Shown here piece by piece: positions 11,141 to 11,938 of a stretch of 64,000 bases of DNA (position 1 is its first letter; every line of letters starts with the position of its first letter). The stretch covers positions 3,310 to 67,309 of the IMG/VR virus record IMGVR_UViG_3300025534_000008. One strand, 5' to 3'. Source of the DNA: a virus. The notes below the pieces were generated by a model, which did not search any database, was not told the origin of the DNA, and saw only the letters and a program-made list of their open reading frames with translations. A program made the position numbers and the translations under genes.

Positions 11141-11938
11141 TTAAAAATCATCATCTATGCTATTATCTAGCATATTCTGATGAGATTTTTGCATTTTCCT
11201 AAACTTATCAAAAATGTATGATAAGAAAAATAGTAACAATCCAATCATTAGAGTAGGAATTACTAGGGATAACACACTAAAAATAATCCTTTTAAGCAAT
11301 GAGTATTCATTATTTTTCCCTAACAAGTATACTAGCATACTCCATATTAATATAATCAAACCAGTAAATGAACATGTTATAATAGTAATTGTTTTATCTG
11401 AAAAAAGTTGTTCAAAAAAATTATAAATTGTAATACTGTTTTTTCTATAAATAATATAAAAAATTAAGATAAATTGCATAATTCTTCCTGGTATTGATAT
11501 TAAAAAGTTTATAAAAACATCATGATTAATATCTTCTATAGTTTTATTTATAAAACTTAACGTTATTGGTATATAAATAAACTCAATTACAGTTATAAAC
11601 ACCATCCCAAGAAACACACATAATACTGTTTTTAAAATAATCATTTTGTCATGTAAAAAATTATTCTTCTTTACAATATACACTGTTAAACAAACCATTA
11701 TCGAAAAACTTATCAAAAATGAAATTGGCAATGGAATCTTTGCTATGTATCTTCCGATATTTGAAATTATAGCTGTAGGAATAACTGGAATCATTATATA
11801 TTTTATATTGTATTTCCACATTTTGATATCAAGCAAATCAAATCTTTTTAGTAATATAAGAGTTATTAAAACACACACTAACTCTTCAGGTATACTTACA
11901 AGCAAAGTATTTAATCCTGCGTTAATTAAATCTTTCAT
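11141..11938 (-). CDS. Polytopic membrane protein resembling an AgrC sensor domain, without kinase domain
   Basis: About 7 hydrophobic segments, short polar tail, no H-box or HATPase motifs; stops 30 nt before agrD. Confidence 0.6.
   Translation of the reverse strand: MKDLINAGLNTLLVSIPEELVCVLITLILLKRFDLLDIKMWKYNIKYIMIPVIPTAIISNIGRYIAKIPLPISFLISFSIMVCLTVYIVKKNNFLHDKMIILKTVLCVFLGMVFITVIEFIYIPITLSFINKTIEDINHDVFINFLISIPGRIMQFILIFYIIYRKNSITIYNFFEQLFSDKTITIITCSFTGLIILIWSMLVYLLGKNNEYSLLKRIIFSVLSLVIPTLMIGLLLFFLSYIFDKFRKMQKSHQNMLDNSIDDDF

Follow-up and report, generated by a model that had tools for sequence, protein, structure and literature searches.

The agr system is the textbook example of peptide quorum sensing in Gram-positive bacteria, and all of the agr receptors described are, to our knowledge, histidine kinases. 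The locus analysed here, in a large phage of the Clostridium type, raises the question of what a receptor-like membrane protein with no kinase domain might do inside an agr cassette. The window, i.e., the whole stretch of DNA that was analysed, comprises 64,000 nt of the 75-kb IMG/VR virus record IMGVR_UViG_3300025534_000008, which is estimated to be 42% complete, and has a G+C content of ~27%. The protein in question is 265 aa long and is encoded at 11141-11938 on the minus strand; we refer to it as X.

X and agrD form one promoter-to-hairpin unit

The cassette occupies positions 9357-12115 of the window on the minus strand, in the order promoter, X, agrD, hairpin, HTH-MazF, agrB. Its features, including the segments of X discussed below, are as follows.

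12087..12115, minus strand: predicted sigma-70-type promoter, TTGACA-17-TATAAT, 5' of X (consensus match only, 12/12, the top score in the region)
11947..11953, minus strand: RBS of X, AAAGGGG, read from the sequence 8 nt 5' of the ATG at 11938
11141..11938, minus strand: X, 265-aa seven-helix membrane protein, putative stand-alone AgrC-type sensor domain with a predicted 25-aa cytoplasmic tail (ORF, AlphaFold2 model, family search, hhalign)
11336..11743, minus strand: variable membrane core of X, residues 66-201 (helices 3-6; tested segment 66-210), proposed peptide-binding part (low identity among phages, co-variation with the AgrD ring)
11828..11851, minus strand: conserved loop 1 of X, KRFDLLD, residues 30-37 (16 phage homologues), predicted to be cytoplasmic from the positive-inside count
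11144..11218, minus strand: C-terminal tail of X (QKSHQNM..DDDF, residues 241-265), predicted to be cytoplasmic and proposed to serve output or docking (two tail types matching the HTH-MazF type)
10997..11110, minus strand: agrD, 37-aa precursor (TIGR04223, E 2.8e-8), with its own RBS AAAGGAGAG
10955..10987, minus strand: terminator-like hairpin at the end of the X-agrD unit (15-bp stem at -18.2 kcal/mol, z -5.2, and then an A/U-rich run)
9980..10837, minus strand: HTH-MazF fusion, 285 aa, with PemK/MazF at residues 103-210 (E 4e-24); putative partner or effector of X in the cytoplasm
9357..9959, minus strand: agrB, 200 aa, AgrD-processing peptidase (PF04647, E 3.6e-35)

Counted from the stop of X, agrD begins 30 nt further on. 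The hairpin at 10955-10987 escaped a simple terminator scan because its T-run is interrupted. With the promoter on one side, the 30-nt gap between the genes and the hairpin after agrD, X and agrD therefore make up a single promoter-to-hairpin unit. The first-pass annotation of this DNA had proposed a shared promoter and terminator for the two genes, and both elements were found, the promoter as a perfect consensus match and the terminator as the 15-bp hairpin.

Beyond agrB lie a DndB-like gene and then a gene for an MrpR-like protein with a recombinase fold, which form a repressor pair of the YopQ/YopR type, as in SPbeta-like phages, MrpR/YopR being the master repressor of that group (PMC10516654). 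The cassette sits in the place where SPbeta-like Bacillus phages keep arbitrium. A blastn search of GenBank phages returned no match to the cassette. On the other side of X, where related phages mostly have a gene for a DUF5317 membrane protein, the window has ORFs of 65 aa (12144-12341) and 132 aa (12402-12800) of no recognised kind.

X is a seven-helix membrane protein with a conserved loop and tail

The ORF of X runs from ATG to TAA and ends in a double TAA stop. The structure predicted with AlphaFold2 from a 14-sequence alignment is a confident bundle of seven long helices (pLDDT 84, pTM 0.77), in agreement with the ORF and with the first-pass description of a 265-aa protein with several transmembrane segments at this position. 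When lysines and arginines are counted in the loops defined by the AlphaFold2 helix boundaries, ~13-15 fall on the side of loops 1, 3 and 5 and the tail, versus 4 on the opposite side. This imbalance predicts that the N-terminus of X is outside and the C-terminus inside, leaving a cytoplasmic tail of 25 aa.

Loop 1 and the tail are the best-conserved parts of X among the phage homologues. R32, D34, L36, D37 and W41 are invariant in 16 of these homologues, W41 being a Trp just past the KRFDLLD of loop 1. Mean identity among phages in the core (helices 3-6) is 27-37%. N10, S15, P17, E18 and E19, which lie towards the outer end of helix 1, are invariant or nearly so, as are P150/R152. Strongly conserved polar residues of this kind are seen more often in enzymes or transporters than in hypervariable receptors, a pattern that counts against reading X as a receptor. 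It favours an accessory role in peptide production, in which X would be a peptidase acting on the AgrD leader, an exporter, or a chaperone presenting AgrD to AgrB. Such a role would parallel that of MroQ or SpsB in staphylococci. Speaking against it, the conserved-residue lists of the X family hold neither His nor Cys, and no CPBP motifs; no His reaches 75% conservation in the 129-sequence family alignment.

Two specific identities of this kind were tried and rejected. X has no PF04647 match and no conserved His or Cys, and its profile comparison with AgrB gives P 0.08-0.13, which does not support a divergent AgrB. As a CPBP/Abi protease of the MroQ type, X offers only the EE pair (E18, E19), with no His, no Arg in register and no Pfam match.

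Database searches do not name X. No family in Pfam, NCBIfam or PHROG matches it, and the sole library match, an MPN207a-type PTS accessory model (E 0.004), is far below the cut-off and was dismissed as chance. The sequence profile of X retrieved zero PDB chains even at E 10, and Foldseek and VIA-align comparisons of the model to the PDB gave generic helical matches only, with no solved AgrC membrane domain among the PDB search results. A shape search of the Atlas matched X to an unnamed, mostly viral cluster of 637 members with 274-aa proteins, with a TM score of 0.60 for our own model and 0.86 for the Atlas model; this cluster is probably the same family as X. The rows that follow in the Atlas, SpoIIE_N (TM 0.43) and a HisKA kinase (TM 0.33), score too low to be informative, and no AgrC-type (HATPase_c_5) cluster appears among the matches listed.

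Sequence searches do provide X with a family of its own. A word-indexed search yielded 13 relatives with lengths of 264-321 aa, and an exhaustive profile search extended the family to 278 cluster representatives, of which 193 score E <= 1e-10. Among the best 150 of the 278, full-length homologues are ~250-326 aa long, none exceeds 326 aa and none carries a kinase; lengths of ~465-563 aa were covered by this exhaustive search alone, likewise for the best 150 of the 278. No fused forms of X were found among proteins of 563-2000 aa, a search that the tool itself rates as weak evidence. Since X belongs to a family of short homologues with 278 representatives and no longer forms among the best 150, it is neither a chance ORF nor a truncated kinase. 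Pfam detects no HisKA or HATPase domain in X. The first-pass claims that the protein ends before any such domain, and that its clean stop does not look like that of a frameshifted kinase, are borne out by these searches, by the double TAA and by the short homologues. A literature search found no published description of a kinase-less AgrC-like family.

X shows distant profile similarity to the sensor domains of AgrC-type kinases

Because solved structures resembled the X model only as generic helical bundles, X was compared with AgrC by sequence profiles, a comparison that the first-pass annotation had also proposed. AgrC-type (HATPase_c_5) kinases were taken from 120 Clostridia genomes. Against this set of only 16-27 sequences, the official hhalign aligned X 24-162 with kinase residues 17-142 (prob 73%, E 3.1e-5), and a local hhalign run placed X 1-265 colinearly, in a global alignment, over kinase 1-255, which covers the entire sensor as far as the H-box (P 7e-6). 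With the same kinases, the long bacterial forms of X aligned at prob 89% and P 2.5e-7, and their extra ~50 C-terminal residues fall on the two DHp helices without the phospho-acceptor His. The control profiles (reversed, AgrB and DUF5317, of which the latter two are also multi-pass membrane families) all gave P >= 0.08. The similarity to AgrC sensors is specific in this sense, at 14-18% identity and as a weak signal from profiles of hydrophobic proteins. It also bears on the accessory role, since X at P 0.08-0.13 shows no comparable likeness to AgrB.

Small motifs common to X and the AgrC type are an acidic residue in helix 1 (VSIPEE in X, LTGxxE in the AgrC type) and "iSN" in helix 2. The kinases scoring best on the X HMM (L047, L055 and L066) adjoin agrB and a fragment of the preceding regulator gene, and in L047 also agrD. 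Judged from these profiles, a distant homology of X to AgrC sensor domains is moderately supported. The first-pass annotation had named two outcomes that would overturn its reading, a lack of structural likeness to AgrC sensors and homologues that are full-length kinases; going by the profiles and by the best 150 homologues, neither was obtained. The last residue of X, 265, aligns with AgrC residue 252-255, at the H-box. A His in the tail of X was considered as a vestigial H-box and rejected; its position corresponds to the linker ahead of the H-box, and the family has no conserved His throughout.

No phage-encoded partner for a phosphorelay was found

No HATPase_c_5, LytTR or receiver domain was found in the 75-kb record, so that the first-pass statement that the window has no LytTR response regulator can be extended to the whole record. 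Five related phage records, three of them estimated to be 100% complete at 139-167 kb, with terminal repeats in two of these three, contain no HATPase_c_5, HATPase_c or LytTR domain either. A kinase or LytTR partner of X could in principle be encoded by the host.

One arrangement of this kind would make X the sensor half of a split kinase, with the DHp/ATPase subunit and the LytTR regulator both supplied by the host. Several HATPase_c_5 matches in Clostridia do lie in open frames of ~220-250 aa (G100:C17, G104:C23, G083:C254 and G029:C121), which resemble sensor-less soluble kinase cores and could be halves of split AgrC-type kinases, and the long bacterial forms of X retain a DHp-like hairpin. 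Nevertheless, no short HATPase_c_5 kinase was seen beside X, and an Anaerobacterium chartisolvens genome with four copies of X has two HATPase_c_5 matches that are both full-length (442 and 455 aa). The phage form of X, moreover, stops before the H-box, with its tail His on the linker and no His at 75% conservation across the 129 sequences, and the complete related phages lack the kinase part. We regard a split kinase as very unlikely.

The missing kinase also suits a reading in which X binds peptide and has no output of its own, either as a decoy or sink that lowers the level of free signal or as a blocker that pairs with host AgrC-type kinases and jams the signalling of the host or a rival phage. 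X is sensor-like without a kinase, and no phage-encoded two-component kinase or regulator was found in this record or in the related ones. A pure sink, however, would not need loop 1 and the tail, which are the most conserved parts of the protein, and the phage X lacks the DHp-like helices by which AgrC dimers pair.

X travels with agrD and a DNA-binding protein

The order X, agrD, HTH-MazF, agrB was found in 17/17 phage loci examined, with an HTH-MazF fusion of 256-298 aa; the phage-type loci listed are the window, L001-L003, L007, L011 and L069-L078. In almost every locus X is immediately 5' of agrD, at a gap of 10-30 nt, an arrangement that would also be expected of an accessory to peptide production.

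Several further genes recur around the phage cassettes. A DUF5317 membrane protein of ~155-216 aa is encoded just 5' of X in most of the related phages (L001:5347-5961, L002:5396-5860, L003:5363-5926, L069-L074, L077 and L078) and is not present in the window. In many related phages a stand-alone MazF of 121-143 aa is encoded upstream of the cassette, at a distance of a few genes (L003:4966-5331, L007:2151-2525, L069:1233-1649, L070:2845-3231, L076:3483-3884 and others); the window has none. Four phages carry a second X paralogue of 273-287 aa past agrB, with no agrD of its own (L007:7466-8287, L072:6764-7597, L073:6746-7597 and L078:6824-7687). This second copy could be an orphan sensor for a foreign peptide, from the host or a rival phage. 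Orphan copies of this type would suit a decoy, and they argue against an accessory that serves the production of its own peptide.

X is also found in bacteria. A six-frame search of 400 Clostridia genomes found it in 11, and a scan of genome contigs with peptide patterns found 4 loci only. The bacterial proteins are longer (276-326 aa), and agrD is the next gene in most loci. In several of them (L006, L028, L030, L035 and L036) agrB adjoins the X-agrD pair, and other bacterial loci have X-agrD without an adjacent agrB, which is a point in favour of an accessory role. The Anaerobacterium chartisolvens isolate (G001) has four X-agrD pairs (L023, L034, L037 and L038) and two agrB genes (L015 and L020), one of the latter being an orphan beside a Spo0E-like gene and the other lying in a canonical agrB-agrD-agrC locus. 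Four paralogues of X in one genome weigh against X as an accessory.

At about ten bacterial loci, the next gene encodes an HTH protein of the Xre type (120-239 aa), and these proteins have a C-terminal motif in common. Among the Xre-type proteins that flank X-agrD (L006, L012, L013, L028-L031, L034, L037 and L004), this motif reads roughly N..YL.LA..K. These proteins may be the cytoplasmic partners of the long forms of X, and the presence of such dedicated regulators next to bacterial X relatives argues against a decoy. The N-terminal part of HTH-MazF aligns weakly with the Xre HTH proteins. Taken across loci, the linkage pattern indicates that X is tied to agrD and not to agrB, and that a DNA-binding protein tends to accompany it.

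The core of X follows the signal ring and its tail follows HTH-MazF

AgrD of the window has no Cys, and its predicted ring is a Ser-lactone, SLMWL, which precedes HQPKTP. The predicted rings of all the phage-type loci listed above begin with Ser and not Cys, which implies lactone rings. They vary among related phages (SLMWL in the window, and SWLGA, SWLFS, SMFFS, SYFVT and others elsewhere), with a constant leader and HQPKxP tail, and they differ even between otherwise close phages, in the manner of pherotypes. In phage pairs with 78-86% identical HTH-MazF and differing rings, the identity of X can be just 38-49%, and phages with similar rings have X identities of 66-70%.

Co-variation was assessed with partial Mantel tests on 13-14 phage loci; tests of this type ignore the tree and give inflated values where ancestry is shared, and the data are weighted heavily towards two deep phage clades. 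On this basis, ring similarity follows X with a partial r of 0.42 (p 6e-4) when controlled for HTH-MazF and of 0.52 (p 2e-4) when controlled for AgrB, and AgrB retains no residual link to the ring. The signal lies in helices 3-6 of X, where the partial r is 0.36-0.46 per segment (p <= 0.002) and 0.55 for the whole core, in contrast to -0.02 for the tail. The tail follows HTH-MazF instead, with a partial r of 0.81 (p 3e-4) versus 0.34 for the core, and falls into two types, each following an HTH-MazF type. Given the gene order core, tail, agrD, HTH-MazF, this crossed co-variation is not what simple linkage predicts.

Both halves of the pattern bear on the alternatives. An accessory to peptide production would not obviously follow the ring of the mature peptide, the part that a receptor recognises, nor would its conserved tail be expected to track HTH-MazF; together with the evidence above, this makes an accessory role unlikely. 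A decoy likewise leaves the co-variation of the tail with HTH-MazF unaccounted for, and we consider X as a binder without output quite unlikely. A peptide receptor, on the other hand, is what X probably is.

Predicted complex of X and HTH-MazF

Complex prediction was performed with two HTH-MazF chains and X, each with a 16-row alignment. The assembly reached an ipSAE of 0.45, compared to 0.00 for the best control, with contact agreement between runs of at least 96% and a partner pLDDT of at least 73; the prediction gave no interface output. The pass mark used here is reached by 58/80 solved complexes and 2/110 mismatched pairs, and scores up to 0.60 were obtained for only 7/80 solved complexes and for both of the passing mismatches, a range that is rated more often wrong than right. 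As such, the modelled complex weakly supports a contact between X and HTH-MazF and raises the odds of one a little.

The first-pass annotation had offered three outputs for X, namely a decoy pairing with host AgrC, a peptide sink, and a receptor signalling directly to HTH-MazF. The last of these is favoured by the linkage in all 17 loci, the co-variation of the tail and the weak pass in complex prediction; the decoy and the sink have become less favoured.

A proposed phosphorylation-independent mechanism

The best explanation for these observations, to which we assign a probability of roughly 0.55, is that X is a stand-alone AgrC-type peptide sensor that lacks the DHp and ATPase domains and works by a phosphorylation-independent mechanism. 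Direct action on HTH-MazF is a possibility that we advance with the odds somewhat against it. Peptide binding by X, its contact with HTH-MazF and its biological output are what we infer, in the following form. The phage AgrB would process the 37-aa AgrD to a Ser-lactone cyclic peptide with the ring SLMWL, which would be exported. The peptide would then bind the variable core of X, helices 3-6, from the cell exterior, and the resulting change would be relayed to cytoplasmic loop 1 (KRFDLLD..W) and the acidic C-terminal tail. Loop 1 and the tail would act by protein-protein contact and not by phosphotransfer, most likely by holding or releasing HTH-MazF. The DNA-binding and RNase activities of HTH-MazF may in turn bias the adjacent SPbeta-like repressor operon (DndB/YopQ-like and MrpR/YopR-like) and with it the choice between lysis and lysogeny.

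Comparison to known systems

The closest counterparts to X are AgrC of S. aureus and the HPK10 class, which includes VirS, FsrC and clostridial AgrC. Like these, X has a multi-helix N-terminal membrane sensor with a predicted N-out/C-in topology, shares its agr locus with agrB and agrD, and has a sensor core that co-diversifies with the peptide ring. Unlike them, it has no DHp phospho-acceptor His, HATPase_c_5 domain or partner LytTR regulator, and the phage X ends in a 25-aa tail inside what is the linker region of AgrC. The locus orders also differ, agrB-D-C-A for AgrC versus X-agrD-...-agrB here.

MroQ, an Abi/CPBP-family membrane protease unrelated to X and required for AIP maturation in S. 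aureus (bioRxiv 10.1101/516914), resembles X in being a multi-pass membrane protein in an agr context, with the paired glutamates of X lying in a membrane helix. In contrast to X, it has EExxxR, FxxxH and HxxxN; X has no conserved His, none of those patterns and no Pfam CPBP match.

Among phage-borne systems, the agr3 locus of the Clostridioides difficile phage phiCDHM1 comprises agrB, agrD and a putative receptor without a response regulator (PMC3901668), as does the window cassette. The AgrC of phiCDHM1 has a HATPase_C kinase domain and, per the paper, no identified receptor domain (PMC3901668). The two systems are opposites in this respect, a kinase without an identified receptor domain versus a sensor without a kinase, and the HTH-MazF fusion is an addition of the window cassette.

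Arbitrium, the AimP-AimR-AimX system of SPbeta-like Bacillus phages, acts in phi3T through the host MazE-MazF (PMC10769878). As in the window, arbitrium is a peptide-signalling module beside a YopQ/YopR-like (DndB and MrpR) operon, with a MazF-type RNase in the circuit. The two have no sequence relationship, however, and differ in their parts. Arbitrium uses a linear hexapeptide that is imported and then recognised in the cytoplasm by a TPR receptor, and in phi3T it works through the MazF of the host, whereas the window encodes an AgrB-made cyclic peptide that is presumably read at the membrane and a phage MazF fused to an HTH domain.

Implications for agr signalling in phages and Clostridia

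Many clostridial agr loci, as far as we know, have agrB and agrD without a known receptor, and the agr operon of C. perfringens reportedly has two upstream hypothetical genes, CPE1562 and CPE1563. The X family, whose members accompany agrD and vary together with the signal ring, is a candidate receptor for such orphan agrBD or agrD loci. More broadly, X may represent a phosphorylation-free branch of agr, in which a sensor derived from AgrC detects a cyclic peptide and gates, by direct action, a DNA-binding protein, namely an HTH-MazF that sets lysis or lysogeny in phages and an Xre protein in Clostridia; this is a generalisation that we put forward as tentative and doubtful in its full extent. 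If true, X would be the missing receptor of many orphan agrBD and agrD loci and would provide a new route from a membrane signal to a DNA-binding protein. It would also make the cassette a second phage communication system, evolved independently of arbitrium, that controls dormancy and has a MazF RNase built in.
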